A stretch of 32,000 bases of DNA from an uncultured Chloroflexia bacterium (GCA_963718915.1 CAVRAI010000004.1:750001-782000); one strand, 5' to 3'; positions 1 to 29,422 are shown, counted from the stretch's first letter. Notes: generated by a model from the letters alone, not told the origin. Made by a program: numbers and translations.

Positions 1-266
1 GCTTTGCCGCGGAGACCGAACATATCGCCGCGAACGCTGCCAGGAAGCTTACCGCAAAGGATCTGGATATCCTCGTCGCCAACGATGTTGCCCGGAGCGA
101 TATTGGATTCCAGGCGCCAGATAACGAGGTGACGCTCTATCACCGTGATGGCACGGTCGAGGAGCTACCTTTCCAGGCGAAGCGTGCCGTCGCCGACGCC
201 ATCTGGGATCGTGTTTCTCCGTTGGTGCGTGCGCGAGCCACGGCCGCTATTGATTTGCACAACTGA
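1..266 (+). CDS. coaBC: CoaBC (phosphopantothenoylcysteine decarboxylase / phosphopantothenate--cysteine ligase), 3' end only; the 5' part lies left of the window
   Basis: My translation of frame 3 (codons from nt 3) reads FAAETEHIAANAARKLTAKDLDILVANDVARSDIGFQAPDNEVTLYHRDGTVEELPFQAKRAVADAIWDRV..., with stop TGA at 264-266. The pattern GFAAET...D.D.IVAND...N.V is the conserved tail of the CoaB ligase domain. It is absent from the ORF track because no start codon lies in the window. Confidence 0.75.
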   Translation, partial: FAAETEHIAANAARKLTAKDLDILVANDVARSDIGFQAPDNEVTLYHRDGTVEELPFQAKRAVADAIWDRVSPLVRARATAAIDLHN

Positions 267-319
267 TATCGCGCACCATAATTGGAGTAGATGTTACGTG
301 TGCGCCGGTCCCATAGCCG

Positions 320-348
320 TTGCCGCTTCGCAAGGCCAGTGCTACACT
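320..348 (+). promoter_or_regulatory. Putative sigma70-type promoter with extended -10 for the YYY operon: TTGCCG (320-325), 17 nt spacer, TACACT (343-348), TG at 340-341
   Basis: Read directly from the sequence. It lies about 74 nt upstream of the ATG at 422, which has GGAG 7 nt upstream. This implies the ORF-track start at 320 is not used. Confidence 0.4.
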
Positions 349-421
349 GCCAGTGCTTTTCAGTCTTTTGTGGCCCATCTGCGCGACTCCAGGGCGGCCA
401 TTCCACGAGTGGAGAAGAACG

Positions 422-2359
422 ATGCAGGAGGCGTCAATGCCGAACCGCACTCGGCGTCGCCTGCGACCAGCTTTCGCTGCTATTCGGCCATACTCATCTG
501 ATGAGGTCGAGACGACCACCACTGCCGCGGCACGTCGGGTGAGCACGATTTCGGATCGTGTGTGGGGCTGGCTGGCACGCCGTGATCCCCTCTTCTGGGC
601 GATGGTCGGTATCGCGCTCGTCGCGCTGGTGTTACGGCTCTACGGCATCAACTGGGACGCTAATAATCACCTCCACCCCGATGAGCGTGAAATCGTCTTC
701 AAGGCGATGTGTCTCTCATTTCCCGGTACGCCGCGAATTGGTAATTGCGATCCAGCCTATACGGGTCCGGGCTGGCTGCTTTCGCCAAATTCGCCCCTCA
801 ATCCGCACTTTTTTGCCTATGGTTCATTCCCGCTGTATCTGTTGGCCGCGGTCGCGCATGGTCTTGCCTGGATTACCCATCTTACCGGTGGGCGATTTCT
901 GCCGCCAGATGGAGGAACCTGGGACGATTTCAATCACTTTACGCTGGTGGGTCGGGCGATTTCGGCAATATTCGACGCTGGTACCGTTCTGCTGGCTGGC
1001 CTGATTACCCGTCGGCTCGCGGGCCGCTGGGCAGCGCTGCTGGCGGCGGCGTTTGTCGCGACAATCCCCTTCGAGGTGCAGGTCGCGCACTTCTACGCTG
1101 TGGACACCCTAATGCTGTTTTTCGTCATGCTGACGCTCTACGGCTGCATGTTGCTCGTGCAGGGAGCGGGTTCACCAGCCTCGCGGGATCGCCTCGCGGC
1201 AGGCCAGTGGTGGGCATGGCGTCTGGGCGTGCTGATCGGCGTCGCGTATGCGCTGGCACTCGCCACAAAGGTGAGCGCGCTGCCGCTGGCGGTACCGATT
1301 CTTGTGGCTCTGGCGCTCTGCTGGTGGCGGCGAGGGATGGATTCCATGTTACTCGCGTTCATGGGAGTCGTCTCGACCGGCCTTATCGTATTTACGCTTG
1401 TCAGTCCCTATACGTTCCTCGATTGGAAGGAATTTCAGCAGCAGGTCACCGAGCAGACGATGCTCTCACAAGGCCAGCTGGACTACCCCTACGTGCGCCA
1501 GTTCGCGGATGCGACCAATTACATCTATCCTTTGCGGCAATTGTTGCTGTATGACATGGGTTTGCCGCTTGGGGTGCTCGGCCTTGCAGGCTTTGCCTGG
1601 GCAACGAGCAAGCTCTGGCGCACTCTAAATACCGACTGGCTGATTCTTGTTTCGTGGCTGGCCGTCTACTTTGGTATTGTCGGCGGCGCATACATGAAGT
1701 TCAGCCGGTACATGCTCCCCGTCTTCACCGGGCTGGCAATCTGCGGCGCGGCGGCGCTTGCCGCATTGAGCGCGTGGGGGCTGCGTCGGCTACGCGCTAT
1801 CAGCGAAAGTCAAGCGGAAGCTAAACAGCGACGCTGGTGGCGCCGCGATCCGTTCGCGCTGCCGATGGCGCGCTGGGCAACGACGCTCTGGGGTGTGCGC
1901 TGGTGGCGTGGGGTCTGTCTGGCTATCGCGCTAGGGGTGTTGGTGGCTTCCAGTTTTGCCACGCTTGCTCTGCTCAACATCTACAGCGAGCCGAATACCC
2001 GTGTGCAGGCATCCGTCTGGATCTATGACCACGTATCCGCTGGCTCGACGCTGACCAACGAGGTCTGGGACGATCCGCTCCCGATAGAAGCGCCGCCTGC
2101 GCGCGTCGACGCGCAGGGAGTTGGATATACCGCCAGTGGCGCGGTTATCAACCCATCGGAGTACCAGCAGATTGGCCTCAATCTGTATGACGATGACACG
2201 CAGCAGAAAGCCGTCCAACTGGCGCAGAGTCTCGCCAGCGCCAATGTTGTCGTCATCAGTAGCCAGCGGCTGGTCAAGTCCATCCCCAAACTGCCTGACC
2301 GCTACCCTATGACCACGCGCTACTACGATCTGCTCTTCGCGGGCAAGTTGGGATTTCAA
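422..2359 (+). CDS. Segment 1 of the fusion gene: PMT_2/GT39-like (GT-C type) polytopic membrane module with a soluble tail
   Basis: The pattern is TM1 (LFWAMVGIALVALVLRLYGI), then HPDERE (DE at 680-685), then FFAYGSFPLYLL and many further hydrophobic segments. This is the ArnT/PMT-like family pattern. The as-given ORF runs on to 2605, but after 2359 it becomes R/G/P-rich out-of-frame sequence. Confidence 0.75.
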
Positions 2360-2360
2360 A

Positions 2361-4121
2361 CTGGCGGCGCACTTCGAGAACCACCCAAACCTCCTGGGCA
2401 TCACGCTCGACGACAGCGGAGCGGACGAGAGCTTCTCGGTCTACGATCATCCGCCGGTCTGGATCTTCACACGCGAGGGTGCGGGTTTGACCCAGGCGCA
2501 GCTGACTCAGGAACTGACGAACGGCCTCTATTTGCCAGCGGCATCGCATCGCTCTGGCAGCCAGAAATCGCTGCTGCTCTCATCACAGGATGCGGCGGCG
2601 GATAACCAGTCGCAGCCACTCGGCGTGCAGTTCCCGGCAAATAGCCTTGCCAATTCGATCCCATTGCTCTGGTGGCTGCTTATCATCGAACTCCTGGGCA
2701 TTGTGAGTTTCCCGCTCGCCTTCAGCGCGTTTCCCGGATTGCGCGACCGTGGCTGGGGCTTGAGCAAGCTGCTTGGGCTACTCGTCCTGGCATGGGCCAT
2801 CTGGCTGCCTTCCAGTCTGCATGTGTTGCCATTTGATCGCTGGGCAGTTGTCCTGATGTTCGGCGTGCTGGCGGCATTCGGCGCGCTTGTCGCCTGGCTA
2901 CGACGCGATGCCCTCTGGGCATTTATCCGGGCACGTTGGCGGCTACTCGTTATTGGCGAGGCGTTCTTTGTGGCGGCGTTCCTCTTCTTCGTCTGGATTC
3001 GCGCGCTCGACCCTGATCTCTGGCATATCTATCGCGGCGGCGAAAAGCCAATGGAGCTCGCCTTCCTGAACGGCATCCTACGCAGTCGCTTTATGCCGCC
3101 GCTTGATCCCTGGTTCAGTGGTGGCTATATCAACTACTACTACTACGGCCAGTATCTGATTGCCGTGCTCATCAAACTGACCGGCATCGCCCCAACTACT
3201 GCCTTCAATCTGGCGATTCCACTGCTGTTTGGCCTGACGTGTTCCGCTGCCTATTCGGTGGTTGCCGGGATGACCGGTCGCTGGTGGGCGGGTCTGATGG
3301 GTGGGCTTGGCCTGGCTGTCGTGGGCAATCTGGATGGTCTGCTGCAACTGATCGGCCAGCTTCAGGCATCGCTTGCCGGGCAGATTCCACCTGCCTTCGA
3401 TTACTGGCGTAGCAGTCGTGTCATCCCGTTTACGATCAACGAGTTCCCATTCTGGAGCTTCCTCTACGCCGATCTCCATGCTCATCTGATTGATCTGCCA
3501 ATCGTCGTGTTGATTATCGCTGCCTGTGGCTCGCTTCTGCGTGGCGCGAGCGTCTTCGGACAACACTGGCGGTCGGTGGTTCCGACGCTGGCGGTCGTGG
3601 CGCTGGCGCTTGGGGCGGCATGGTGTACGAATACATGGGATTTGCCGACGTATGGCTTGCTGGTTGCGCTCGTACTGATGTTGCGGCTGTTCCCGAATGG
3701 AGGCGTGGGCTTCTGGCGGACGCTGAAGAGCCTCTCATGGTCCGCCATTCGCAATGTGGCGCTGGCCGTGGTCCTGACATTCGCAGGCGCATACGCGCTC
3801 TACCTGCCATTCCACGCGAATTTCCAGAACTTCGTCAGCGGTACCGGGCCGGTCACCACGCCTACGAATCCCGCCCAGTTTGTTACGCTGTTCGGCATAT
3901 GGCTCTTCCTGGTGGCGAGCTTCCTATTCCTCGAACTGTGGGATCGCGTCGAGCGTACATTTGGTGGCGAGGATCGAACTGGTCAGGCGCAGCGCCTCAT
4001 CCTGCTCACGCTTGCAAGTATCGTTGTTCTGTTGCTGGCGTTTGCCATCAGCCTCAAAGTGCTGTTGCTCGTGCTGCTCGGCGCTGGCGCGTATCTCGCG
4101 CTTGGGAAGCCGCCACTCAGC
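2361..4121 (+). CDS. Segment 2 of the fusion gene: end of the GT-C module tail, a linker, and the N-terminal two thirds of a Chlor_Arch_YYY (DUF2298) module
   Basis: Frame 0 reads LAAHFENHPNLLGITLDDSGADESFSVYDHPPVWIF, then a linker. It then carries PLLWWLLIIELLG..., GGEKPMELAFLNGILRS, PPLDPWFSGGYINYYYYGQY (3129-3155), TAFNL, TINEFPFWSFLYADLHAHL and NTWDLPTY. These are collinear with gene 2. The ORF-track entry is 2487..4211. Confidence 0.8.
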
Positions 4122-4122
4122 G

Positions 4123-5079
4123 GTCAAACGGTTGACCTATCTGGTGATTTTGCTAGGCCTGGGGGTTGCCTTCGGCGTCGAAGTCATCTACGTACGCGAC
4201 TTTCTGGATAACTCCGACTGGGAGCGGATGAACACGGTCTTCAAGTTCTACTATCAGGTGTGGACCCTGCTCTCGCTTGGAGGAATACTGGCGCTGACTC
4301 AGATGCTCGGACGCATCTTCCCGATGCGCTCCACCGAGGCGACACAGCAAGATGGCGACGATGAGACTGGTCAGGAGTTGATAGAGGAAGAGGAGTCTTC
4401 AGGCCAGGTTGCGCCCTCACATCCTCGTGGCGTGGAGTGGGCAGGCGTTTTGCGCGGCGGCATGCGGATCGTATGGGTATTGGCATTCGCTGGTCTGCTC
4501 TTTGGGTCGTCGATCTTTCTGATCGAGGGCACAAAAGCGCGAGTGAGCGATCCCGCTGTTTGGGCCGCCGTGCAGCCGCCACCGGGTGGCGTTCAGCCAC
4601 AAGGTCTCTCGCTAGATGGTATGGCTTATATGCGCGGTTGGTATCCAGGTGACTACGCAGCAATCACCTGGATCAATGACCATATCGCGGGCGCGCCAAC
4701 TATCGTGGAGGCGAGCAATGGCCCGTATGCGTGGTATAGCCGCGTCTCGATTTACACAGGACTGCCCGATGTGTTGGGCTGGAGCAGTCACGAATCACAG
4801 CAGCGTTACGGTGATCAGGTCTATGCGCGTCAGTCGGATGTGCAGACATTCTATGGATCCGAGGATCCCGCTGCCGCAGTGAACTTCTTGCGCGAGTACA
4901 GCGTCAAGTATGTCTACATCGGCGGCCTCGAGCGCACCTGTTATATGACCAATGACCAGGGAGGCTGTGTGCCAATGTCTGGCGCGGCGCTCGATAAATT
5001 CACATCACTGGCGCATGCGGGCGTATTGCGTGCGGTTTATCAGAATAGTGATGTGGTGATCTATCAGGTGGTTGGCTAA
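4123..5079 (+). CDS. Segment 3 of the fusion gene: C-terminal third of the YYY module (last TMs plus the extracytoplasmic C-terminal domain)
   Basis: Frame 1 reads VKRLTYLVILLGLGVAFGVEVIYVRDFL...ERMNTVFKFYYQVW...SLDGMAYM...WINDHIAGAPTIVEA...YTGLPDVLGWSSHESQQRY...YVYIGGLER. It matches gene 2 motif for motif. The ORF-track entry 3880..5079 overlaps segment 2 in its first ~240 nt. Confidence 0.8.
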   Translation, partial: VKRLTYLVILLGLGVAFGVEVIYVRDFLDNSDWERMNTVFKFYYQVWTLLSLGGILALTQMLGRIFPMRSTEATQQDGDDETGQELIEEEESSGQVAPSHPRGVEWAGVLRGGMRIVWVLAFAGLLFGSSIFLIEGTKARVSDPAVWAAVQPPPGGVQPQGLSLDGMAYMRGWYPGDYAAITWINDHIAGAPTIVEASNGPYAWYSRVSIYTGLPDVLGWSSHESQQRYGDQVYARQSDVQTFYGSEDPAAAVNFLREYSVKYVYIGGLERTCYMTNDQGGCVPMSGAALDKFTSLAHAGVLRAVYQNSDVVIYQVVG

Positions 5080-7703
5080 TGGGCGAGACGATTTTCTGGT
5101 GGTTGGCAATTGAAGTGATCGGTCTCGCTGGGCTGCCCCTGACCGCGCTGGTCTTCGCCAATCTGCCTGATCGCGGCTGGTCGCTGGCCAAACCGTTCAG
5201 CTTGCTTATGCTTGGCTGGCTGATCTGGTTTCCCCTCACCCTCATCTCGGCGCTGCCATTCAACCGTGTTTGGATTGTACTGACACTACTCCTCTATCTC
5301 GCGGGGAACGTTGCGCTTGTGTGGAGGGTGGCGCGCGTCAGAAATGCGCTCGCAGCGCTTTTTGCACGGCAGCGCGGCTATCTCATTCTCACCGAACTCC
5401 TCTTTATCGTGGCGTTCGCGGCGATGGTCTGGGAGCGGTCCTTTACTCCCGCAGTGGTGGACACCGAAAAATTTATGGATGTGGCGTTCCTCTCGTCGAT
5501 CTGGCGTGCTCCCCACCTGCCACCACCTGACCCATGGCTCAGTGGCCAGTCTATTAACTACTACTACTTTGGCCACTATCTGATAGCGCTGCTCGCAAAG
5601 CTGCTTGGCACTGTTCCCGGCACGGCCTTCAATCTCGGCATTGGCCTCATCTTTGCGCTCACGGCGGTGGCGGTGTTTGGTGTCGCCGCTAATCTCTTCG
5701 CCGTGGTGTCTCCCACTAGGCGAGGATTCTGGCGCGGGCTGGTTGGATTGACCTCGGCGTTCTTTGTGCTGATTCTCGGCAACCTGAACGGGGCGCAGGT
5801 CTGGTGGCAGAACGCGCAGGATCTGGCGCGCCAGTTGCCAGCGCTCTACAGCAGCCCGTGGGCATGGTTACTCCATCGCGATGTCTGGACGCGCTACGAC
5901 TGGTGGGCGCCTTCGCGAGTCATCCCCAACACGATCAACGAGTTTCCGGCGTTCAGTTTTGTTCTTGCCGATCTACACGCGCATGTGCTGGCGCTACCCT
6001 TTGCGACTGTGGCTATCGGTCTTGCGTGCAACCTGCTGCTTGCGCGTAGGTCAGGCATTCATGCATTTGGTGATGGGCGTCTGAGTTTGCTCGTACTTCT
6101 GGCTTGCGGTGTGGCGATAGGTGGGCTGTATGCCATCAATGGATGGGACTTACCCACCTATCTGGGACTGGCAGTGCTGGCGCTCGCGATTCAGCAGTGG
6201 CTGGCGCATGAGCGGCGGTTCAGCAAACCGCTCTTCATCGATTTCCTGACGGTCGCACTGTTACTCTGCGCGCTGTGTTTTGTCGCATACTTGCCATTCT
6301 ATCGCGACTATTCCTCGCCAGGAGAAGGCGTGGGGCTGGTTCCATTTAATGCGCGCACTCCTATAGGCTACGAAGTGGCTATTTTCGGTCTGCCCCTGTT
6401 TGTGCTGCTCTCGCTGGCGACGGTGCGATTGGTGAAGCGCTGGCCTGCGCCGGGCGCGCAGATCACTTTGGCAACTGGAGTGGTGCTGGCATTGGGATCT
6501 TTGCTTGTGCCCAACGCGACACTCTGGACGTTACTCGGGGCACTGCTGGTGGTAGCTGTCTGCGCCTATCTAGCGGCTGGTCTACTGGGGCTGCGGTTAG
6601 GTAGTGGTCTACCTGCGGATGCGCTCTACCCCCACGAGGATGCGCGCGAGAATGAACGGTTGCGCGCCAGGGCGTGGCTCTGGTGCCTCAGCGGTACGGC
6701 TGTCGCGCTGATTGCCGCCTGCGAGCTAGTCTTTCTCCGAGATGTGTTTGCTGGGGGAGATCAGGGCCCGCTTGGCTCGGCCTTCCGAATGAACACCGTC
6801 TTCAAACTGTATTATCAAGCATGGCTGCTGCTGGGCATCGTCGCGGGGCCAGCGCTCTGGTGGTTGCTTGCTGGCGCATTTCGCTGGTTGCGCACTGCTT
6901 TCGTTGCGCATGATTGGGCGGAGCCACAACCGGCTCTAGTGCGCGTGGCGCCGGGCGCGCAGATGCTTCATGGTGAGGCTGGCTCGCTGGCGACCCTCGC
7001 CGCGAGCGACCCCTATGCGGATCTCTCGGCGGCTGTTCCACCAAATAGTTCAATATCGGCGGGAACCGATACACATGAGCCACCGTCCATACACAGTGGG
7101 CATAGACGCACTGGGCCAGATGCGTTGCGCGCACTCGGTGCGGGTGGTATCGTACTCTGGATACTTGTGTGTGCGGCGCTGGTTGGCGCGGCTACGATCT
7201 ATCCCATCATGGCGACCGCGGCCCGTACGGCTAATTTCACGCTGTCACGCTCGCTTGACGGCACGGCCTATATGAGCACCGATCTGGTGAATCAGGGCGA
7301 TGCGCAGGCCATTGCGTGGCTCAATGCCCACGTGACGGGTGATGCGGTTATCGTCGAAGCCGCGCAATATGACGAGTACACGCACAATGGTCGTGTCTCG
7401 GCCTTTACGGGGCTGCCAACGCTGATTGGTTGGGGAGGCCACGAGCTACAGTGGCGTTACAACTGGTTGCAGCAGCCAGGGCGAGGCAATCTCATTACAC
7501 AGCGGTTGAATGCTGTGGCGCAAATTTATACCGATACCAGCGAGCAGCAGGTGTTGAAGCTGCTCCATCAATACTCAGTGAGCTATGTATATGTTGGCGC
7601 GGCGGAACGCCAGTTATATCCATCGGCTGACCTGGGTCGTTTCGCGACGTTTCTCCGCATGGTCTATCATTCCGCTGATGTGACCATCTACGCGGTTCCA
7701 TAA
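5079..7703 (+). CDS. Chlor_Arch_YYY family polytopic membrane protein (DUF2298/TIGR03662), 874 aa
   Basis: Intact ORF whose ATG overlaps the upstream stop (TAATG, 5077-5081). Motifs: DTEKFMDVAFL, PPPDPWLSGQSINYYYFGHY (5553-5579), TINEFPAFSFVLADLHAHV, NGWDLPTY, RMNTVFKLYYQAW. The C-terminal domain reads SLDGTAYM...VIVEA...TGLPTLIGWGGHELQWRY...YVYVGAAER. Confidence 0.9.
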   Translation: MGETIFWWLAIEVIGLAGLPLTALVFANLPDRGWSLAKPFSLLMLGWLIWFPLTLISALPFNRVWIVLTLLLYLAGNVALVWRVARVRNALAALFARQRGYLILTELLFIVAFAAMVWERSFTPAVVDTEKFMDVAFLSSIWRAPHLPPPDPWLSGQSINYYYFGHYLIALLAKLLGTVPGTAFNLGIGLIFALTAVAVFGVAANLFAVVSPTRRGFWRGLVGLTSAFFVLILGNLNGAQVWWQNAQDLARQLPALYSSPWAWLLHRDVWTRYDWWAPSRVIPNTINEFPAFSFVLADLHAHVLALPFATVAIGLACNLLLARRSGIHAFGDGRLSLLVLLACGVAIGGLYAINGWDLPTYLGLAVLALAIQQWLAHERRFSKPLFIDFLTVALLLCALCFVAYLPFYRDYSSPGEGVGLVPFNARTPIGYEVAIFGLPLFVLLSLATVRLVKRWPAPGAQITLATGVVLALGSLLVPNATLWTLLGALLVVAVCAYLAAGLLGLRLGSGLPADALYPHEDARENERLRARAWLWCLSGTAVALIAACELVFLRDVFAGGDQGPLGSAFRMNTVFKLYYQAWLLLGIVAGPALWWLLAGAFRWLRTAFVAHDWAEPQPALVRVAPGAQMLHGEAGSLATLAASDPYADLSAAVPPNSSISAGTDTHEPPSIHSGHRRTGPDALRALGAGGIVLWILVCAALVGAATIYPIMATAARTANFTLSRSLDGTAYMSTDLVNQGDAQAIAWLNAHVTGDAVIVEAAQYDEYTHNGRVSAFTGLPTLIGWGGHELQWRYNWLQQPGRGNLITQRLNAVAQIYTDTSEQQVLKLLHQYSVSYVYVGAAERQLYPSADLGRFATFLRMVYHSADVTIYAVP

Positions 7704-7718
7704 GTCAGGAGTGAGTCT

Positions 7719-10484
7719 ATGGCTCGAAAGAGTAACAGCGCTGAAGGCGGCGGGTCTCGGCATATGAGCGCTGCGAACATCTATCGGTCGACCCAGTCGG
7801 CGTCTGAGGCTGCCTCGGTTGATGCGGCGCTATCGCTAACAAACGCAGAGATAGATGCTCCTGAAGAAGATGTAGCACAAGATGATGCTGTGCCTGTTCT
7901 GACATCCATCTATGATCGTACGCCAGTCCGCGAACGACTCGAATATCAGGCGCGACAGATGTGGGACTACATCCGATCTATGCGGCTTGAGCAGTGGCTC
8001 TGGATCGGCGTAATTCTGCTGGCGACGATTTTGCGCTTCTGGGATTTGGGCGCAAAACCGCTTCATCATGACGAGAGCATGCATGCGTTTTTCTCGTTGA
8101 CATTCGCTCGTAATCCTGCGAGCTATGAGTATGATCCATTGCTCCATGGGCCGTTTCAGTTCCATGCTGAAGGCTTCATTTTTATGGTGATACTGGCTGC
8201 TGAGCGTATTTTTGGCGTTGGTGGCGCGGCTGGGAACCCATGGATCAACGATGCGACTGCCCGAATCTTACCAGCGATATTTGGCGTCGGAATCGTCGTG
8301 CTGCCACTTGGCCTGCGGCGCCAGCTTGGCCGCATTGGCGCGCTGGTTGCCGCGCTGCTGCTGGCGGTCTCGCCCACTTTCGTTTACTTCTCTCGCTTCC
8401 TGCGCGAAGACATTTACTTCAACTTCTTCATGTTCGCGGTGGTGATCTGTGCGGTGCAATATGCTCACAAGCGCACTATTCGCTGGATAGTAGGTCTTTT
8501 TCTCTCGGCCATCTTAGCGTATGCCACCTTTGAAGGCATCTACCTGACCTTGGTCATCTTCGCCTCGTTCCTGGTGCTGCTCGTGCTCTGGGAACTCTCC
8601 TACAGTCTGGCGCGTCGCCTGCCAAAGGAGTTGACGCGACGCGAGCGGCTCTTCTTCAGTCGAGCGGGGCTGCTGCTGGTAGCAGGCGGCATCGGTGGTA
8701 TTCTGGCCTACATCGGCCTGCACATCCTGAACAACCTCAGCACCTATATCACCACGCATACTGCCCAGACAGATATCCAGATCGTTCAATTGGAAAACAC
8801 GACGGTGCTGGTTCTGCTCTATCTGAGTATCATTGTCGCCATCACGGTCATTGGCGTCTTGCTCTGGCAAATCTCGCGTGATGATAGCCGTGTCAGCTTT
8901 GAGGGCGAGCCATACGATGACGCCGACGAAGAACACGTGCCAGGTAAGTCGTTTTCCAATCGGCTCGAGGCGATCTTTACCGCGCCTGGACGGCGGATCG
9001 CGGCCATTCGCGAGCGCATCGATCCCGACGAGAAGCCCTTCCTGCATATGTTGCTTGGGATTAGTTGGGTGCACTGGTTCGTTGGGATTGTCGCGGCATG
9101 GGTGGTTTTTGCTGCCCTTTACTGGGTGCTGCCCCCTGGTCCTCAGGGCAATCTGACATGGGGGCAGGGCTTCCAGATTGGTGTCGGCAGGGGCGTCTGG
9201 CAGGGCCTCTATTACTGGTTGCAACAACAACAGATCGCTCGTGGTGGGCAGCCGATCTATTACTACATGTTGCTGCTGCCACTCTACGAGCAGCTTGCCA
9301 TCGTCTTTGGCATTGGGGGCGCGGTCTATGCGCTATTCCGCCCGACTCGCTTCCGCCTCTTCCTGGTCTGGTGGTTTGTTGTCTCCATGGGCCTGTATTC
9401 CTGGGCAGGGGAGAAGATGCCGTGGCTCTCGATCCACATTCTGCTGCCGTTGATGTTGCTGGCGGCGATTATGATCGAGCGGCTGATTGAGGCATGCATC
9501 GATCTCTCGTGGGATGTTCGGCTACAGGGAGCGCGCGCGCTGCTCTTGCGCCCGGCGGAACAGGTTCAATTGGCCACCGAAGCAAGTCTCAACGCGAGCA
9601 GTTCGGGTGACATAGCCACCGAGCAGAGCCGGTTCTCTGAATCCAGTGCGGATAGGGAAAATGATATCGTCAGAGAACAGGTGCAACACAACCCCTGGAA
9701 CCCACCTGCCTTCTTCATATCCATCCAGCGGTTCTTGACGCCGGTAGGGCGGGTTATTCAGCGCGTGAAACGTGCAGTTGCCTGGCGCTCCGTCGGAACC
9801 ATTGCGACGGCAGCGCTGGCGCTGGCGCTCTTCATCCCGATGATTCATAGTATGGTCGAGCTCGCCTACGTGGAACCAGCGGATGGTCCACAAGAGATGA
9901 TGACCTATGTGCAGACGACGCCAGATGTCACTGCGGCGATGGCGAAGATCAACGCTGCGGATCAGAAGCTCCATGCAGGTAATCACCAGCTACAGGTATG
10001 GGTGGGCCAGGGCGAGGAATGGCCAATGTACTGGTATCTGCGCGACTATTACCTGGATCCCCATCCGGGAACGTATGTAACCTTTGATCCAGCCAGCCTT
10101 ACTGATAAGTTTGCCCAGGGCGTGCCTGCTCCCGATGTGCTCATCCTGCTGCCGTCCGACGCGGCCACGTTTATGGCGGCGCATCCTGGCTATCATGCGA
10201 AGCAATACAAATTGCGCTCGTGGTGGGATGAGTCGTATAAGCTGCCGCTTTGCAGCGCGACGGTCAAATCAATGTGTACGACGTCCGCGGATTGGGGAAC
10301 TGGTGTCGGGCTAGGTAACTACCTGAGCTACGGCAGCCAGCCTCCCGCCAACGCGAAGTTCGATCTGGGGCGGACCGTGAATCGGCTCTGGAACTGGCTC
10401 TGGTACCGCCAGCCACTGGGTGATGTCAATGGCTCGTACGATTTTACGCTGGTCGTTCGCGATGGACTTCCTATTCAACCATAG
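7719..10484 (+). CDS. TIGR03663-family membrane protein (PMT-like N-terminus, GT-C type), 921 aa
   Basis: Intact ORF with AGGAG (7707-7711) 7 nt before the ATG. Motifs: LRFWDLGAKPLHHDESMH (DE at 8070-8075), LLHGP (8142-8153), FVYFSRFLREDIY, GGQPIYYYMLLLPLYE, EKMPWLSIHILLP, and a C-terminal WPMYWYLRDY. The invariant DE, HGP and Arg residues fit the TIGR03663 description. Confidence 0.85.
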   Translation: MARKSNSAEGGGSRHMSAANIYRSTQSASEAASVDAALSLTNAEIDAPEEDVAQDDAVPVLTSIYDRTPVRERLEYQARQMWDYIRSMRLEQWLWIGVILLATILRFWDLGAKPLHHDESMHAFFSLTFARNPASYEYDPLLHGPFQFHAEGFIFMVILAAERIFGVGGAAGNPWINDATARILPAIFGVGIVVLPLGLRRQLGRIGALVAALLLAVSPTFVYFSRFLREDIYFNFFMFAVVICAVQYAHKRTIRWIVGLFLSAILAYATFEGIYLTLVIFASFLVLLVLWELSYSLARRLPKELTRRERLFFSRAGLLLVAGGIGGILAYIGLHILNNLSTYITTHTAQTDIQIVQLENTTVLVLLYLSIIVAITVIGVLLWQISRDDSRVSFEGEPYDDADEEHVPGKSFSNRLEAIFTAPGRRIAAIRERIDPDEKPFLHMLLGISWVHWFVGIVAAWVVFAALYWVLPPGPQGNLTWGQGFQIGVGRGVWQGLYYWLQQQQIARGGQPIYYYMLLLPLYEQLAIVFGIGGAVYALFRPTRFRLFLVWWFVVSMGLYSWAGEKMPWLSIHILLPLMLLAAIMIERLIEACIDLSWDVRLQGARALLLRPAEQVQLATEASLNASSSGDIATEQSRFSESSADRENDIVREQVQHNPWNPPAFFISIQRFLTPVGRVIQRVKRAVAWRSVGTIATAALALALFIPMIHSMVELAYVEPADGPQEMMTYVQTTPDVTAAMAKINAADQKLHAGNHQLQVWVGQGEEWPMYWYLRDYYLDPHPGTYVTFDPASLTDKFAQGVPAPDVLILLPSDAATFMAAHPGYHAKQYKLRSWWDESYKLPLCSATVKSMCTTSADWGTGVGLGNYLSYGSQPPANAKFDLGRTVNRLWNWLWYRQPLGDVNGSYDFTLVVRDGLPIQP

Positions 10485-10520
10485 CATAGGCCTGGCGCTG
10501 AACAGAGAGGTGGCGTGCTG

Positions 10521-11256
10521 ATGAACCAACAGACGCACGCTGAACAGGCGCCGCTGGACATGCTGGAGGAGCGCATCGGCGCCTCCTTCAGCGACAGTAC
10601 GCTGCTTGTCCGCGCGCTGACCCATCATTCAATCTGCCCGCAGACGGCACAGCGCGACGCCTATGACACGCTGGAGTTTCTCGGCGATGCGCTTATCAGC
10701 GCCTATGTCGTGGAGCACCTCTTTCAGGCCTATCCCGATGCGACCGAGGGCGAGTTGACCGCGCTGAAGTCGGAGGTGGTCAGCCGGAGGGTGTTTGCGC
10801 AGATTGGGCTAGGCCTTGGCCTCATGGAGTTCATCCGCGCTGATCCAGCCAGCCTGCGCACCTTTAATGATCGTTCGCGCGAGTCGCTGTGCGCTGACGT
10901 GCTGGAAGCGTTGGTTGGCGCGATCCACCTGGATGCCGGACGGGCGGCGGGCGAAGATTTTTGTCGGTCGGTTCATTCTGCCGGTTATTCCTGAGGTGCG
11001 AGCGACCCTAGGCGAACGCAATCCCAAGGGCGCGCTCCAGCAGCATGTCTTACGTCAGTCGGGGCAACTTCCACGCTATGAAGTGCTCGATGAGCGTGGT
11101 GAGAGTAACGACCGCAGCTATCTTGTCGGCGTCTTCGCGGGAGATCGCCTGCTTGGGCGCGGCGAGGGCAGCAGCATTAAAGCGGCTGGCAGAGAGGCGG
11201 CTCGTGCGGCGCTCGCAGGCGAATTTCCCAATGGCAACGGGCCATTCACAGAATAA
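10521..11256 (+). pseudogene. rnc: Ribonuclease III, interrupted by a +1 frameshift at about 10941-10953
   Basis: The upstream piece (ORF 10515..10994; ATG 10521 lies 10 nt after AGAGAGG) carries the RNase III signature DTLEFLGDA and ...VLEALVGAIHLDAG. The downstream frame (ORF 10816..11256) continues AKIFVGRFILPVIPEV...RNPKGALQQHV...LPRYEV...GEGSSIKAAGREAARAAL, which is the dsRNA-binding domain. Deleting one G from the GGG run at 10949-10951 restores one frame. Confidence 0.85.
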
Positions 11257-12363: not shown

Positions 12364-12966
12364 CTACCGAACAGGCTTGACAGGCTTGGGCGCAATTGTT
12401 CCGGGTGGTGGAAGCCGCTTCATATCTGCTGCAGGTTCGACTGAGCGATGGGCAAGTCTTCCGATGAATGGGTAGGTATACTTTTTACCCAGCAGGGAGG
12501 CAATGGCTCCTACAATTGATGACGAAAAGAAGAATATCGTCGCGCCAACCGGAATAAGAAATAAGCCGATCACCGAGCCAATCATGCTCCCGCCCGCAAT
12601 CTGCCCGGGCAAACCACTTGACTCGGAACCGCCAACGGAGAGAATTGTCGTAAGTAGCAGAAGGCCAATCGCCAGAAAGACAATGATATGGCCTAACGTC
12701 TGCCAGAGGACGGCCTGCCGCGCCTGCATCGCCACATAGCGTGATCGACGTCGTTGAGTGAACCAGATCACTGACGCGAGCAGCATTCCTGGTAAACTGA
12801 AGAGAGTCAGTAGATGGGCGACGGCGGCGAGGATGCGTTCCAGGGCAGTTGGACGAATGGGATAGCGCACCTCGGACCAGTGCGTTGGCCCGTCATTCGT
12901 AAATATTGGCGCCGATCCTTTCCACGTTACGTGCGCGAAAATCTGGATACGGAAAGCGCGATGCAC
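12364..12966 (-). CDS. DUF4870-like small polytopic membrane protein
   Basis: The pattern AHLLTLFSLPGMLLASVIWFTQRRRSRYVAMQARQAVLWQT, followed by further TM segments, resembles the DUF4870/Tic20-like family. The start is uncertain: GTG at 12966 has no clear SD. Confidence 0.6.
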   Translation of the reverse strand: MHRAFRIQIFAHVTWKGSAPIFTNDGPTHWSEVRYPIRPTALERILAAVAHLLTLFSLPGMLLASVIWFTQRRRSRYVAMQARQAVLWQTLGHIIVFLAIGLLLLTTILSVGGSESSGLPGQIAGGSMIGSVIGLFLIPVGATIFFFSSSIVGAIASLLGKKYTYPFIGRLAHRSVEPAADMKRLPPPGTIAPKPVKPVR

Positions 12967-17568: not shown

Positions 17569-18795
17569 TCAGCTCACTTGAGCGCTCTCTATATCCGCCG
17601 ACGGACCCAGCTGGAGACCGAGAATGCCTCCCAGGTTCTGAAGCGCCTGCAATTCTGCTGCGGTTGTTCCACTTACCAACTCGTCGAGGATACGGAGCGC
17701 GGCGGGAGTATCCAGATCGTGGCGGAGGGCATCGGAGAACCGCTGGCGTACTGAGTTCGTCGCGCTATCGTCGTCGCTTGTGGCATGCGCGCTGCTCTCC
17801 AAACGGGACACGGCATCGGCGTAACGCGCGGCGCGTGCGGCGCTCTGGCGCATATCAGCGTCGGTGTACTGCCATGGCTCGCGGTAGTGGTGCGAAAGCA
17901 GCAGCACCCGTACAGCGCCAGGCGTGTATGTTTCGAGTAGATTCCGCACCAGCACCAGGTTGCCGAGCGATTTGCTCATCTTCTCTTCGCCTAGATAGAC
18001 CATGCCGCAGTGCATCCATATCTGCACGAAAGGCCGCTCACCACTTGCGTTCTCACTTTGAGCAATCTCGCAGGTATGGTGCGGAAAGATCAGATCGGCG
18101 CCGCCGCCATGGATATCAATTCGGTTGCCGAGATGGCCCATCGCCATCGCGCTGCATTCGATATGCCATCCCGGTCGCCCCATTCCCCACGGACTCTCCC
18201 ATGATGGCTCGCCCTCCTGATGCGCCTGCCATAGCACAAAGTCCAGTGGGTCATTCTTGCGTGGATCGTCCGGCGTATTACCGCGCTCATTCGCCGTTGT
18301 CAGCCATGTGGCGTAGCCATTGTAACCGCCAGCCTCAGCCAGCGCGCCAAAGGTCGGATCACTGGCGACGGAGAAATACACCCAGCCATCGCGCACGTAG
18401 GCATTGCCGTGCTCAATGAGCTTCTCGATCACGTGAACCATGCACGGGATTTCGTTCGTCGCCCAGACATAGTGTGTGGGTGGCAAGATGTTCAGAGCGC
18501 GCAGGTCGGCCAGATAGCGCATGGTTTCGCGGCGGCCCAGCTCGTCCCACGATGTATTTTGTTCGCGCGCCTTGCGGATGATATCGTCATCGATGTCTGT
18601 AACGTTCTGCACATAATTGACTTCCTGCCCCTCCGAGCGAAGGAATCGAATCAGGGTATCGTAATAGACGTTGATGGCGGCGTGTCCAAGATGTGTCGTG
18701 TCATACGGCGTGACACCGCAGACATAGAGAGTGACCTCGTTGCCATGCGGATGAAGCGGTTCAATGCGCTGGGTGAGGGTATTGAAGAGTTCCAT
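17569..18795 (-). CDS. Class I cysteine ligase of the CysRS family, short form (408 aa) resembling MshC; either cysteine--tRNA ligase or a cysteine:aminosugar ligase
   Basis: Motifs: YVCGVTPYDTTHLGHAA (HIGH-type), YVQNVTDIDD, PGWHIECSAM, HGGGADLIFPHHTCEIAQSE, KMSKSLGNLVLV, DDLDTPAAL. It ends about 50 aa after the DDLDTP motif, so the C-terminal anticodon-binding extension of canonical CysRS is missing. Confidence 0.8.
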   Translation of the reverse strand: MELFNTLTQRIEPLHPHGNEVTLYVCGVTPYDTTHLGHAAINVYYDTLIRFLRSEGQEVNYVQNVTDIDDDIIRKAREQNTSWDELGRRETMRYLADLRALNILPPTHYVWATNEIPCMVHVIEKLIEHGNAYVRDGWVYFSVASDPTFGALAEAGGYNGYATWLTTANERGNTPDDPRKNDPLDFVLWQAHQEGEPSWESPWGMGRPGWHIECSAMAMGHLGNRIDIHGGGADLIFPHHTCEIAQSENASGERPFVQIWMHCGMVYLGEEKMSKSLGNLVLVRNLLETYTPGAVRVLLLSHHYREPWQYTDADMRQSAARAARYADAVSRLESSAHATSDDDSATNSVRQRFSDALRHDLDTPAALRILDELVSGTTAAELQALQNLGGILGLQLGPSADIESAQVS

Positions 18796-21774: not shown

Positions 21775-23424
21775 ATGTCTTCCGGTCTTCAGCAGCCCAC
21801 ATCCCAGCCGACTTCCGCCAGTGGCGATCAACCAGCCCGTGAGATGATTGCTATTCTCGATTTCGGTTCGCAGTATAGCCGTCTGATCGCCCGCCGCGTT
21901 CGCGAGTGCCGGGTCTATTGCGAGTTGCTGCCCGCGGCTACGACCCTGGCAGACCTCCAGAGGCTTGGCGCTAAAGGAGTAATACTCTCCGGCGGGCCAG
22001 ATAGCGTCTACGATGAAAATGCCCGTCATGTTGACCAGAACATTCTCGGCAGTGGATTGCCAGTGCTGGGTATTTGTTACGGCATGCAACTGCTGGCCCA
22101 CCAGCTCGGCGGGAAGGTCGAGCCGCATACCGGGCGGCGGGAATACGGCCCAGCGGAGATACATCTGCTCCCACAAGAGAGCGGTGCGCCACTGGGTGTC
22201 GGAGCGCTCTTTACGGGTGTCCTGACGGACGAGCAAACAAGTATCCCTGTCTGGATGAGTCATGGTGACAGTGTGGGAGAGGTTCCACCCGGCTTCGCGC
22301 CGGTCGCGCGGTCGACATCGGGAACGCTGGCGGCGATGGCTGATGGCGGCGGACACATTGGTATCCAGTTTCATCCCGAGGTGCGTCATACGCCGCAGGG
22401 TGGTGAGTTGCTCCAAAACTTCCTGTTCAATGTCTGCGGCTGTTCCCCGAACTGGACACCTGGCGCCTTCATCGATGAGGCGGTTGGGCGCATCCGCGAG
22501 CAGGTGGGCGACGATGGGAGGGTCATCTGCGGGCTGTCAGGCGGCGTAGATTCGGCAGTGGCGGCGCTATTGGTTCATCGCGCGATTGGTGACCGGTTGA
22601 CCTGCATTTTTGTGGATACCGGTTGTATGCGTGCGGGTGAGGCAGAGCAGGTAGTCTCGACCTTTCAGACGTATCTGGGTATCCCGTTGGTGGCTGTAGA
22701 CGCGAGCGCGCGGTTCCTTACGCGGCTGGCAGGCGTGACCGACCCGGAACAGAAGCGCAAGATCATTGGTGAAGAGTTCGTCCGTGTCTTCGAGGCGGAA
22801 CAACAGCGGCTCCGTGAGGCAGGCGACTATCGTTTTCTTGCGCAGGGGACGCTCTATCCCGACGTGATCGAAAGTACAAGCGCCGCCGATGCCGCCGCCG
22901 CCCAGCGGATCAAGACACACCACAATGTCGGCGGCTTGCCAGAGGAGATGCGGTTCTCGCTCGTCGAGCCACTGCGCTATCTCTTCAAGGACGAGGTGCG
23001 TGAGGTCGGGCGGGAGTTGGGGCTGCCAGAGGATTGGGTCTGGCGTCACCCATTCCCCGGCCCCGGCCTGGCCGTCAGGATGATTGGTGAGGTGACGTCT
23101 GAGCGATTGGATACACTACGCCACGCCGATGCGATATTCATCGAAGAGATTCGGCTGGCGGGGCTGTATCGACAGATTGGCCAGGCATTCGCTGTGCTGA
23201 CGCCAGTACAGAGTGTCGGCGTCATGGGTGATTTTCGCACCTATTCCAGCATGGTTGCCCTTCGCGCCGTCACCACCGACGATTTCATGACGGCTGATTG
23301 GGCGCGCATCCCCCACGAAGTCCTGGCGCGCGCTGCCAATCGTATCGTCAATGAGGTACCCGGCGTTAATCGGGTTGTCTATGATATTACCAGCAAACCG
23401 CCCGCGACCATCGAGTGGGAGTGA
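21775..23424 (+). CDS. guaA: GMP synthase (glutamine-hydrolysing)
   Basis: Motifs: [36 protein letters not shown] (GATase), [12 protein letters not shown] (ATP-PPase P-loop), and a C-terminal ...[13 protein letters not shown]. Start chosen at the ATG at 21775 (GGAG about 10 nt upstream); the ORF-track start is 21721. Confidence 0.93.
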
Positions 23425-23473
23425 TGGCGGCAGATCATTCGCGCGATTCTCGATGTTTTATAGAAAGGCCCGC

Positions 23474-24259
23474 ATGGTGACAGGCGATAGCGACGACCAG
23501 AACAAACCAGATGACAGAGATGGTTGGGATAACTTCGACTGGGAGACAGTGAGCAACGGAACAGCTCACACTGGCCATAGCGACGCTGACGGCGCTTCTG
23601 ACGTGAGCGAGGACGAAACGGCAAGCGTGGGCGAATGGGTCTCGCAGGGCGGCGTGTTGCATTGGGAGGAGCCGGAGGGTACGCCAGACGATATCGCCAG
23701 CGATCTCCGGCGCGAGGCGCAATCGCCCTGGGCGTCTGAGATGCTCACACTGCCTCTGGGCGCCCCTGATGCGCTTCGGGTGCGTGGCGTGCGGGCGTGG
23801 CTTGCGCGCCAACGGCTGCTGGAGAACGAGGCGATGGGTATGCTATTGCTGGAGCGGCGTCAGCAATCGACGAATGAAGACAGTGACGCAACCCAGCGAC
23901 GAGCGCAGGCGGCGAGCGAGACCCATCCGCTCGATATCGCGTTGGCCGAGCATCAGGCGGCGCAGGCGGAGTATGAATCGCTACTGGTATCGCTCGACGA
24001 GGTTGGGATGCACAACGGGCCGGGCAGGGTGCTGGTAGAATATCACTTCCTGCTTGGCGACCGCATTGCGGCGCTAGCCACAGCGCCCGAAGCGCCTGAA
24101 GATTTTGCTGAGACGCAGTTATTCACTACCATCGAGCGCCTGCCAGCATCTACACCCGTGACACCAATCTCGAGCGCGGAGTGGGACGGGCGCGCGGGCG
24201 CGGTTCTGCAGACACGTCGTCGCGTCGAACGAATGAGTGCCCCGGAAGAGGAAGAGTAG
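23474..24259 (+). CDS. Hypothetical acidic protein (no family recognised)
   Basis: The ORF is in the same orientation as guaA and directly follows it. The ATG at 23474 lies 5 nt after GAAAGG. The product is D/E-rich with a predicted helical central part. Coding status is inferred from length, context and non-shadow composition only. Confidence 0.5.
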   Translation: MVTGDSDDQNKPDDRDGWDNFDWETVSNGTAHTGHSDADGASDVSEDETASVGEWVSQGGVLHWEEPEGTPDDIASDLRREAQSPWASEMLTLPLGAPDALRVRGVRAWLARQRLLENEAMGMLLLERRQQSTNEDSDATQRRAQAASETHPLDIALAEHQAAQAEYESLLVSLDEVGMHNGPGRVLVEYHFLLGDRIAALATAPEAPEDFAETQLFTTIERLPASTPVTPISSAEWDGRAGAVLQTRRRVERMSAPEEEE

Positions 24260-24287: not shown

Positions 24288-24527
24288 ATGACGCGGCTCG
24301 TTCTGATGGTTGCAACGCCGCCAGGGCAGGTATTCTCACTGGTTCAATTGCTTCCATTGGTTTTGATTCTTCCGCTCGTCATCTTCTGGATCTGGATGTT
24401 CCGCGACATGCTGAACAACAACAACCTGTCTGACACCGCGAGGTCGAACTGGACGGTGGCATTCATTTTTCTAAATGCCTTTGCCGCCGTCTTCTATTAT
24501 GCCTATGAATATAGAAGCAGGCGGTAA
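24288..24527 (+). CDS. Small 2-TM membrane protein, PLD-nuclease-N-terminal (PLDc_N)-like
   Basis: The ATG at 24288 is preceded by GGGAGGGAG. The pattern LPLVIFWIWMFRDMLNN...WTVAFIFLNAFAAVFYYAYEY resembles the PLDc_N small membrane domain family (tentative). Confidence 0.55.
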   Translation: MTRLVLMVATPPGQVFSLVQLLPLVLILPLVIFWIWMFRDMLNNNNLSDTARSNWTVAFIFLNAFAAVFYYAYEYRSRR

Positions 24528-24600
24528 TAGCGAGCCGACGCCAACCGCATCTGACATCACCTGCCCTTCCAGGCTTTATCAGCGAGAGCGAGTTATCTGG

Positions 24601-25152
24601 CTACCTAACCACGCTACACCAGATATCAGTCCTTGTCGGAGACTCGAAGACCCGCGTTCGAACCAGCATTATCCCCTCATTTGCCAGGGGCTCGAAAAAG
24701 CGAAGACCTTCACCCAGCAAAACAGGGACAATGCCAATGTGGATTTCGTCAACCAGCCCCGCACGCATGCATTGCTGAGCGGTATTCGCACCGCCGACCA
24801 CCATGACATGTTTGCCGCCCGCGGCTGCTTTTGCTTTCTCGATCGCGCTTTCGATGCCATCGGTGACAAAGGTAACTGTCAACTGGTCATTCTCGCCTTT
24901 GATCGCCTGTTCTGGAACGTGATGCGTCAGAACAAAGATTGGCGTCTGGTATTCGTAGCCCGTGAGATCCCCTTCGGCCATATCGAACGCATGTCGTCCC
25001 ATCACCACCGCGCCTGTCGTCCGTATCTCTTCCTGCAAGAAGTCCGTGCGGTGCAACACTTCCAGGTCTGGATACAGGCGGCTCACATCACCATTGCGGT
25101 CACTCATGAACCAGTCCAGCGACATGGTCGCGCCAACAATTACGTTTCCCAT
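24601..25152 (-). CDS. Dihydrofolate reductase family protein (RibD C-terminal domain type)
   Basis: MGNVIVGATMSLDWF...GAVVMGRHAF......PIFVLTHH....VTFVTDGIESAIEKAKAAAGGKHVMVVGGANTAQQCMRAGLVDEIHIGIVPVLLGEG. The ATG at 25152 lies 4 nt after GGAGG. Confidence 0.8.
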   Translation of the reverse strand: MGNVIVGATMSLDWFMSDRNGDVSRLYPDLEVLHRTDFLQEEIRTTGAVVMGRHAFDMAEGDLTGYEYQTPIFVLTHHVPEQAIKGENDQLTVTFVTDGIESAIEKAKAAAGGKHVMVVGGANTAQQCMRAGLVDEIHIGIVPVLLGEGLRFFEPLANEGIMLVRTRVFESPTRTDIWCSVVR

Positions 25153-25247
25153 AACACCTCCAAATCGTGACATGATATTTTCTTTGCTCCAGTTTTACAC
25201 GCCCTCGAAGGAAAGCACTTCTCACATCTTGCTGAATTCTCGGAGAG

Positions 25248-25256
25248 GTTATAGCA
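25248..25256 (-). promoter_or_regulatory. Putative extended -10 element (minus strand TGCTATAAC) upstream of the DHFR-like gene
   Basis: The reverse complement of 25248-25256 reads TGCTATAAC. It is intergenic, about 95 nt upstream of the ATG at 25152. Confidence 0.25.
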
Positions 25257-25316
25257 AGTCAATAAGCTGGAATCGCGGGGATCCTGGCTTATTGTCTGCT
25301 CGAAGGCGTTGTTCGC

Positions 25317-27240: not shown

Positions 27241-27270
27241 TTGCCAGCGGTGGTTGTTTCCAGCTACAAT
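27241..27270 (+). promoter_or_regulatory. Putative sigma70-type promoter: TTGCCA (27241-27246), 18 nt spacer, TACAAT (27265-27270)
   Basis: Read directly from the sequence. The -10 ends only 9 nt before the ATG at 27280 of the PD40 lipoprotein gene. Confidence 0.45.
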
Positions 27271-27279
27271 TGCGGCGCA

Positions 27280-29266: not shown

Positions 29267-29422
29267 AGTGTATTTCCTTTCAAGAGCAACATTTGCAAAC
29301 ATTCAGCGGGAAGCCCTGTTAATTATAACGCTGTCGTCCCGTGTGTGGGCCATTGCACGGCTCACTGTGATAGAGTGACCGCGATAGCAGATGGGATGGA
29401 TACACGGGAACGGAGCAGCGCG

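Follow-up and report, generated by a model that had tools for sequence, protein, structure and literature searches.

Three tightly packed genes at 422-10484 of a 32,000-nt chromosomal stretch from a soil bacterium of the order Ktedonobacterales, phylum Chloroflexota (GCA_963718915.1, CAVRAI010000004.1:750001-782000; the whole stretch is referred to below as the window), encode four membrane modules, all of them polytopic. We lean, by a modest preference, towards the view that this locus codes for a conserved multi-module machine of the glycosyltransferase fold C (GT-C) class, which moves sugars from polyprenyl-phosphate donors to an envelope glycan or protein at the outer face of the membrane. 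Members of Chloroflexota keep these genes linked or have fused them, and in the predicted models the invariant acidic and aromatic motifs as well as the soluble C-terminal domains are placed on the outer face. The operon is a further instance of the known and partly characterised TIGR03662/TIGR03663 gene pair: catalogue entries already existed for the families, with their motifs and co-occurrence, and an archaeal member of one family has been characterised. New here are the fold evidence for DUF2298 (TIGR03662), the quantified synteny and gene fusions, and the observation that a family named as flippase-associated shows all the hallmarks of a GT-C transferase.

Gene organisation, family assignment and conserved motifs

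The three genes lie on the plus strand and start after the end of CoaBC. The latter was assigned by synteny with L001, a JGI metagenome contig which has 85% DNA identity to the window, is syntenic with it over 20 kb and serves below as the reference for insertions; the gap after the CoaBC stop is 157 nt. Gene 1 (422-5079) is a fusion of a PMT/PMT_2-like module with a DUF2298/TIGR03662 module. As sequenced, it is broken into three open reading frames (ORFs; 320/422-2605, 2487-4211 and 3880-5079, in frames 2, 0 and 1), and with both shifts bridged it codes for 1551 aa. Its N-module (422-2660) is a PMT/PMT_2-like GT-C module of ~745 aa with a ~220-aa soluble domain, and its C-module (2661-5079) belongs to DUF2298/TIGR03662 (Chlor_Arch_YYY). 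Gene 2 (5079-7703, 874 aa) also codes for a DUF2298/TIGR03662 protein, its ATG overlapping the gene 1 stop codon in TAATG at 5077-5081. Gene 3 (7719-10484, 921 aa) codes for a protein of the TIGR03663 (Agl23) family and has AGGAG located 7 nt upstream of its ATG. A preliminary description of this stretch, made from the sequence alone, had given the same gene borders, overlap, AGGAG spacing and tight same-strand packing, and all of these were re-derived. The proteins of genes 2 and 3 are identical to two database entries that come from a single 1.05-Mb NCBI/ENA contig. The close relatives of the window genes are all found in Ktedonobacterales metagenome-assembled genomes (MAGs), and dN/dS relative to L001 lies in the purifying range (0.09-0.14) for all three operon genes.

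Family matches are far above chance level. TIGR03662 scores 554 bits with the gene 1 C-module (aa 747-1549) and 539 bits with gene 2 (cut-off 300), the DUF2298 Pfam profile scores 396 and 354 bits, respectively (cut-off 27.8), and TIGR03663 matches gene 3 at 246 bits (cut-off 126.25). With scores so well over the curated cut-offs, the TIGR03662/DUF2298 and TIGR03663 assignments proposed earlier are confirmed. The PMT Pfam profile matches the gene 1 N-module, scanned alone, at 44 bits and gene 3 at 30 bits (cut-off 22.7); PMT_2 gives 30 bits for the N-module and a weak match for gene 3. Pfam scanning of the separated soluble domains at E <= 10 returned nothing useful.

Over their full length, the gene 1 C-module and gene 2 are paralogous to each other, with 32% identity (E 1e-96). 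All motifs previously listed as common to them were recovered, including INYYYYGQY at 3129-3155 in gene 1 and INYYYFGHY at 5553-5579 in gene 2. In gene 2, the motifs DTEKFMD (5460-5480), INYYY (5553-5567), TINEFP (5931-5948), DLHAH (5970-5984), RMNTVFK (6786-6806) and WGGHE (7431-7445) are all assigned to the outer face. More than 100 columns are invariant in DUF2298 among 63 sequences reaching down to ~51% identity to gene 2; N160, Y161, Y162, Y163 and G165 belong to them, and gene 2 thus shows the YYYxG motif expected of this family of strongly hydrophobic proteins of 700-900 aa.

In the two PMT-like proteins the conservation centres on an acidic dipeptide. The gene 1 N-module carries HPDER after its first transmembrane (TM) helix, with DE at 680-685 and with D87, E88 and R89 invariant in 34 orthologues. 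Gene 3 carries HHDES at 8064-8078 (DE at 8070-8075), HGP at 8145-8153 and YYY at 9258-9266, and its invariant residues include D118, E119, H143, G144, P145, R182, R226 and R229, in agreement with the invariant DE, HGP and two arginines near the N-terminus in the TIGR03663 family description. The N-module profile aligns with the gene 3 family (hhalign 89%, E 2e-6), HPDER being placed on HHDES. The motif coordinates given earlier are all correct apart from a slip of one residue, as 8142-8153 encodes LHGP and not LLHGP.

Two further features of gene 3 are worth recording. Its invariant YYY (aa 514-516, within GGQPIYYY) is located at the end of an outer loop and parallels INYYY of DUF2298, although no sequence homology can be detected between the two families. 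The motif LRSW(W/F)DExYK (10209-10241, aa 831-841) is nearly invariant in 64 Ktedonobacterial homologues and belongs to the outer C-terminal domain. It recalls WWDYG of the oligosaccharyltransferases (OSTs) and is absent from a haloarchaeal Agl23-family protein.

Predicted fold and membrane topology

AlphaFold2 models of genes 2 and 3 were built from alignments of 63 and 64 sequences, respectively. The gene 2 model has a mean local confidence (pLDDT) of 85.7 and a predicted TM-score (pTM) of 0.89; the values for gene 3 are 80 and 0.80. When the gene 2 model was compared with the PDB by Foldseek, the top ten matches were all GT-C proteins (STT3 at 1.5e-5, AglB, DPY19, AftA, ArnT), and the matches that follow have E >= 0.16 and probability < 0.2. 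The C-terminal domain of gene 2 gave a weak match to the C-terminal globular domain of AglB (TM-score 0.54, E 0.075). For the gene 3 model, the top 30 matches are all GT-C, namely STT3, ArnT, AglB, Pmt4, ALG12, PglB, AftD and EmbB. The GT-C membrane fold is thus present in the predicted models of both genes, as structure prediction followed by Foldseek had been expected to reveal. When the DUF2298 and gene 3 alignments were run as profiles against PDB sequences, no match at E <= 1 was obtained.

Taking the helices of the AlphaFold2 models as TM segments, gene 3 is predicted to have 13 TM helices, the N-terminus inside and a C-terminal outer domain of ~200 aa. The short loops agree with this orientation, containing 13 lysines and arginines per 35 residues inside vs 2 per 33 outside. 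The DE dipeptide then falls in the outward loop after TM1, and HGP, R229/E230, E272, the GGQPIYYY loop, EKMPW and the C-terminal domain are also predicted to face outward. Gene 2 is predicted to have ~16 TM helices followed by an alpha/beta C-terminal domain of ~155 aa; its outward elements would be DTEKFMD, PPPDPW, INYYY, TINEFP, DLHAH, NGWD, RMNTVFK and the C-terminal domain.

The preliminary description had taken a first TM helix followed by DE in the first external loop as the GT-C hallmark. Gene 3 follows this rule, and so, judging from its homology to gene 3, does the gene 1 N-module, but the rule does not fit either of the DUF2298 modules, in which the acidic motif D128-T-E130-K-x-x-D134 is located after the fourth helix rather than the first. 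This position may be equivalent to the first loop of GT-C enzymes. The proposal of four GT-C-like modules likewise stands in part: genes 2 and 3 have the GT-C fold according to AlphaFold2 and Foldseek, and the gene 1 N-module shares homology with gene 3, but DUF2298 has no sequence link to the PMT-like modules.

Several candidate equivalences with OST motifs were considered. OSTs carry TIXE in a long loop; identification of TINEFP with this motif was rejected, as TINEFP belongs to the loop that follows the third core helix. WGGHE/WSSHE of DUF2298 and SWWDE of gene 3 are unproven as equivalents of WWDYG, and SWWDE is missing from the archaeal member.

Synteny, gene fusions and genomic context

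Scanning of one genome per GTDB species yielded 80 loci, all of them in Ktedonobacteria. A DUF2298 ORF is located directly upstream of the TIGR03663 gene, on the same strand, in 73 of the 75 loci whose upstream DNA is long enough, so the synteny of the two families anticipated by the preliminary description is strong. Of 51 loci, 43 have a PMT-like module upstream, which is fused to DUF2298 in 28 cases and encoded by a gene of its own in 15; in some relatives, e.g., Thermogemmatispora, the N-module is a separate gene of 600-730 aa. No further gene is conserved around the Ktedonobacterial loci.

Some variation of this arrangement was seen. Six loci (L062, L066, L069, L078, L081 and L082), in Tengunoibacter, Ktedonosporobacter, Thermogemmatispora and Dictyobacter, have two tandem TIGR03663 genes after the DUF2298 gene, and in five loci an extra PMT_2 gene on the opposite strand is located between the N-module and DUF2298 genes. 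Some contigs (P0024, P0137; L018) that bear the labels "Nitrososphaerota archaeon" and "Proteobacteria bacterium" encode proteins in the same order with 55-76% identity to those of the window genes and are almost certainly mis-binned Ktedonobacterial DNA.

The DUF2298 profile search covered 1.84 billion representatives and returned 8,876 clusters at 50% identity. In Chloroflexales (Roseiflexus, Chloroflexus, Oscillochloris), it found proteins of 2500-2900 aa composed of PMT_2, DUF2298, DUF2298 and TPR (P0253; P0396, i.e., L085 10001-18040; P0469, i.e., L087). Such a giant protein corresponds to window gene 1 and gene 2 in one chain, with TPR at the C-terminus, which argues that the modules act as one unit. 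In Roseiflexus castenholzii, the fusion gene is followed by another DUF2298 gene (939 aa).

Outside Chloroflexota, the two families were found in other company. An Agl23-annotated protein of 645 aa encoded by a Halogeometricum megaplasmid scores 319 bits with TIGR03663 and 45 bits with PMT_2. The gene 3 profile aligns with it at 98.7% probability (hhalign, E 3e-16), with the DE, HGP, arginine and glutamate residues in register. The gene coding for this protein overlaps a GtrA-family gene (PF04138, 75 bits). A metagenome scan with the archaeal protein yielded only two further haloarchaeal loci, in one of which a GtrA gene lies ~770 nt downstream. Overlapping or downstream GtrA therefore accompanies Agl23-family genes in two of the three haloarchaeal loci (L088 8995-11366; L090 6632-9960), which fits Agl23 as the transferase partner of a separate small flippase. 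No DUF2298 gene was found within 7-9 kb of the Agl23-family gene in any of the three. In Bacillota, plasmid pNP95 of Pseudobutyrivibrio xylanivorans (L089 1-14600) carries a DUF2298 gene in a polysaccharide cluster together with genes for GT2, GtrII, a Wzy_C/O-antigen-ligase-like protein, DegT and a sugar epimerase/dehydratase. Both contexts fit the logic of a synthase, a small flippase and a GT-C enzyme, in which the transferase would be represented by the Agl23-family and DUF2298 proteins.

Relation to known systems

The preliminary description knew of no experimental function for either family and had named an existing functional characterisation as a finding that would count against it. 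For TIGR03663, such a characterisation exists. The NCBIfam name of this family is "flippase activity-associated protein Agl23", and Agl23 of Haloarcula hispanica (UniProt G0HVI9) was proposed to be a hexose-P-dolichol flippase (Lu et al., 2020, as cited in PMC11182771). After purification, this protein moved M5GN2-PP-phytanol and M5GN2-PP-dolichol across the membrane of proteoliposomes without ATP (Chen et al., 2024, PMC11182771), and it suppressed yeast rft1-delta, which Agl22 did not (PMC11182771). For DUF2298, the earlier statement holds, as the literature yielded nothing functional on this family. The name of the gene 3 family is also at odds with the earlier claim that the window encodes no flippase, whatever the true activity of the gene 3 product.

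Compared with the TIGR03662 and TIGR03663 pair catalogued in TIGRFAMs/NCBIfam, the window is alike in scores over the cut-offs, in YYYxG, DE, HGP and the arginine residues, and in the adjacency of the genes; the catalogued class of giant TIGR03662 proteins with two copies and TPR was also seen, in Chloroflexales. The differences concern lineage details only. Ktedonobacterial TIGR03663 proteins have ~850-1000 aa vs 645 aa in the haloarchaeon and contain, besides the 200-aa C-terminal domain, an insert at approximately residues 300-445, and the Ktedonobacterial locus has one DUF2298 copy fused to the PMT-like module. H. hispanica Agl23 belongs to the same NCBIfam family as gene 3 (the direct alignment was made with the Halogeometricum member instead). 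Gene 3 has only ~27% identity to archaeal Agl23-family members over ~210 residues, its lipid carrier would be a bacterial polyprenol rather than the dolichol of H. hispanica Agl23, and it is adjoined by DUF2298, whereas haloarchaeal Agl23-family loci have GtrA nearby instead.

Among GT-C enzymes, the PMT/ArnT-type class (GT39, GT83), which includes archaeal AglS, resembles gene 3 in its 13 TM helices, the inside N-terminus and a DE that opens the first outer loop. ArnT (TM-score 0.59) and Pmt4 are among the structural matches, and the PMT and PMT_2 matches of the window proteins exceed the Pfam cut-offs. Relative to PMT (GT39), the window proteins reach marginal scores (27-44 bits) and have unrelated soluble domains, and the MIR domain, a PMT hallmark, was not reported in Pfam scans of the window proteins. 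The window modules are therefore PMT-like but not PMT. STT3/AglB/PglB (GT66) are the best Foldseek matches for both models and share with gene 3 an architecture in which 13 TM helices are followed by a C-terminal outer domain. The C-terminal domain of gene 2 is weakly like that of AglB, and DUF2298 differs from GT66 in having ~16 helices. The STT3 Pfam profile did not match the window proteins even at E <= 10, and WWD[YWF]G is absent from them.

Three-component extracytoplasmic systems of the GtrABC type consist of a polyprenyl-P-sugar synthase, a flippase and a GT-C enzyme (Kelly et al., 2024, PMC11127046). Their logic would be expected of any GT-C enzyme, and parts of it can be recognised in GtrA beside haloarchaeal Agl23 and in GT2 and GtrII beside Pseudobutyrivibrio DUF2298. 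The window differs from GtrABC in having four GT-C modules rather than one, and no linked synthase or GtrA/MATE flippase.

Proposed mechanism and alternatives

If the locus does encode an outer-face glycosylation machine, the polyprenyl-phosphate sugar would be made by a GT2 synthase encoded elsewhere and would then reach the outer leaflet. By analogy with PMT and ArnT, the DE that opens the first outer loop would provide the catalytic base or the metal site of the PMT-like and TIGR03663 modules, and the DUF2298 modules might use an acidic cluster of their own (D128/E130/D134, E288 and D298/H300/H302). Sugars would be transferred stepwise to an envelope glycan or a secreted protein, with the modules acting as one complex. 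The TIGR03663 protein may additionally help the lipid-linked donor to cross the membrane, as reported for archaeal Agl23.

A number of observations weigh against this scheme. A GT2 synthase is found neither in the window, as the preliminary description had correctly noted, nor in the conserved neighbourhoods of the 80 Ktedonobacterial loci. No GtrA- or MATE-type flippase is linked to the window or to these loci, the GtrA search having returned one weak match. In Roseiflexus and Oscillochloris, there is no TIGR03663 gene within 10 kb of the giant fusion. The GtrA and glycan-cluster contexts come from one to three loci each. Hhalign detected no similarity of DUF2298 to the PMT-like and TIGR03663 profiles; since DUF2298 has no profile similarity to GT-C modules or to PDB sequences, its GT-C status derives from predicted structure only, that is, from one predicted model and one structure-comparison method. 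Finally, enzymatic activity has been shown for no DUF2298 protein and for no bacterial TIGR03663 protein, and the sole biochemistry on the TIGR03663 family concerns translocation of lipid-linked glycans, not their transfer (PMC11182771).

One alternative is that gene 3 codes for a true Agl23-type flippase or scramblase of polyprenyl-phosphate-linked sugars or oligosaccharides, leaving only the PMT-like and DUF2298 modules as transferases. We regard this as rather doubtful, though it deserves serious attention. It would account directly for the name of the family and for the movement of M5GN2-PP-lipids between leaflets and the rft1-delta rescue by H. hispanica Agl23 (PMC11182771); the alignment of gene 3 with the haloarchaeal protein is highly probable, and the operon holds no other flippase candidate. 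On the other hand, the GT-C fold, the invariant DE in the first outer loop, HGP with the arginines and the 200-aa outer domain characterise the active site of a transferase. The use of a lipid-linked sugar donor would be blocked equally well if a transferase were lost, two of the three haloarchaeal Agl23 loci have a putative GtrA-family flippase of their own, the flipping assay was performed with a heterologous substrate, and the identity of gene 3 to archaeal members is low and confined to a part of the protein.

It can also be imagined that DUF2298 is not an enzyme at all, but a GT-C-derived scaffold, acceptor-binding or export subunit standing beside catalytic PMT-like and TIGR03663 modules. 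This would agree with its lack of sequence similarity to any characterised GT-C, with the position of its acidic motif after the fourth helix and with its constant association, by fusion or adjacency, with PMT-like modules. The invariant columns, however, are located in outer loops and are rich in D, E, H, R and K, a pattern more suggestive of an active site than of a scaffold; in the Pseudobutyrivibrio glycan cluster DUF2298 occurs without PMT_2 fusion, and the family comprises ~8,900 clusters. We consider a purely non-enzymatic role unlikely, and the outer-face glycosylation machine with catalytic DUF2298 modules remains the reading that we favour.

A more specific version of the latter can be suggested tentatively, and we hold it to be less probable than the general scheme. 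DUF2298 may constitute a large GT-C glycosyltransferase family operating in an obligate complex with PMT-like modules, and TIGR03663/Agl23 may be primarily an outer-face transferase (STT3-like, with 13 TM helices and a C-terminal domain) and not a dedicated flippase. If so, the database name of TIGR03663 is misleading, and a pathway of envelope or protein glycosylation, so far undescribed, is common to Chloroflexota and some Archaea. The ties of DUF2298 to two PMT-like GT-C modules, by fusion and by near-universal adjacency, provide a testable hypothesis of an outer-face glycosylation complex. It bears on the question of whether Agl23-family proteins are flippases or transferases, and thereby on archaeal glycosylation and the debate on how lipid-linked oligosaccharides cross the membrane. 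The operon is present in the cultured relatives Thermogemmatispora, Tengunoibacter and Ktedonosporobacter, which can be used for experiments.

Frameshifts in gene 1

For the window itself, the outcome is mainly a correct annotation and a warning about indel errors in the assembly. Each of the two gene 1 frameshifts is due to a lone extra base on the plus strand, at about 2357 (GGATTT[C]AAACTGG) and about 4102 (CGC[T]TGGG). The orthologue is intact (1550 aa) in L001 and in L005-L007, and all four of these relatives lack the 2357 insertion. A further lone insertion of 1 nt, which falls in a T5 run at ~10962, splits the RNase III gene located downstream of the operon into halves in different frames, the catalytic domain (ORF 10515-10994) and the double-stranded RNA-binding domain (ORF 10816-11256); in L001, RNase III is intact and has 246 aa. 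The DUF4870 gene (12364-12966, minus strand) has a lone insertion at ~12953 and codes for 200 aa vs 277 aa in L001; another lone insertion relative to L001 is located at ~17098. Five lone insertions in 20 kb, the gene 1 sites included, suggest an indel-prone assembly. As RNase III is broken in the same way and the relatives are intact, the two frameshifts in gene 1 are probably assembly errors, not biology. The ~1550 aa obtained in the preliminary description by bridging them is right to within one residue (1551 aa).

The alternative is that gene 1 is truly a pseudogene in this organism and that the system is degenerating, in which case the damage would be very recent. It is true that two frameshifts fall within one gene and that neither is located in a long homopolymer run, the extra C being inserted between TTT and AAA and the extra T forming a doublet. 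Nevertheless, insertions of a like kind break the RNase III and DUF4870 genes within the same 20 kb, and neither gene 2 nor gene 3 is damaged. After frame correction, gene 1 shows no further lesion (no stops or deletions) and has the lowest dN/dS of the three genes vs L001 (0.089, compared with 0.138 for gene 2 and 0.115 for gene 3), and its segments 3' of the shifts are equally constrained (0.05 and 0.145). In long-contig MAGs of the same clade with isolate names beginning with MFD (L008, L031, L072), the same genes are far more fragmented, being shredded into many ORFs. We therefore find genuine decay of gene 1 very unlikely.

Promoter and neighbouring genes

The promoter-like element reported in the preliminary description at 320-348 (plus strand, TTGCCG-17-TACACT) matches the consensus in 8 of 12 positions, which is under the threshold of our sigma-70-like scan; it was not reported by the scan and is indistinguishable from chance. 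The only sigma-70-like match upstream of gene 1 is at 254-282 (plus strand, TTTGCA-17-CATAAT, 9 of 12). As the scan found one site in 11.3 kb vs 4.6 expected from shuffles, it is listed as a candidate only.

RNase III (10515-11256, plus strand) starts 30 nt 3' of gene 3 and is possibly co-transcribed with it. Since RNase III is located downstream of the operon in only 18 of 82 loci, it is probably no functional partner. The remaining part of the window is occupied by housekeeping genes: queA, PP2C phosphatase, SDR, cysS, tatD, rsmI, dtd, guaA, pepF and polX. Sizeable ORFs without a Pfam match are located at 23351-24259, 24475-25750, 27241-28599 and 29345-29911. The second of them consists of overlapping ORFs in different frames (24475-25170 and 24962-25750) and could be one more frameshifted gene. 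The class-I Cys-tRNA-synthetase-like gene at 17569-18795 (minus strand) codes for only 408 aa, in L001 as well as in the window, and the Pfam catalytic-domain match of its product stops at residue 317; the gene may code for a cysteine-ligase paralogue rather than for the housekeeping CysRS.

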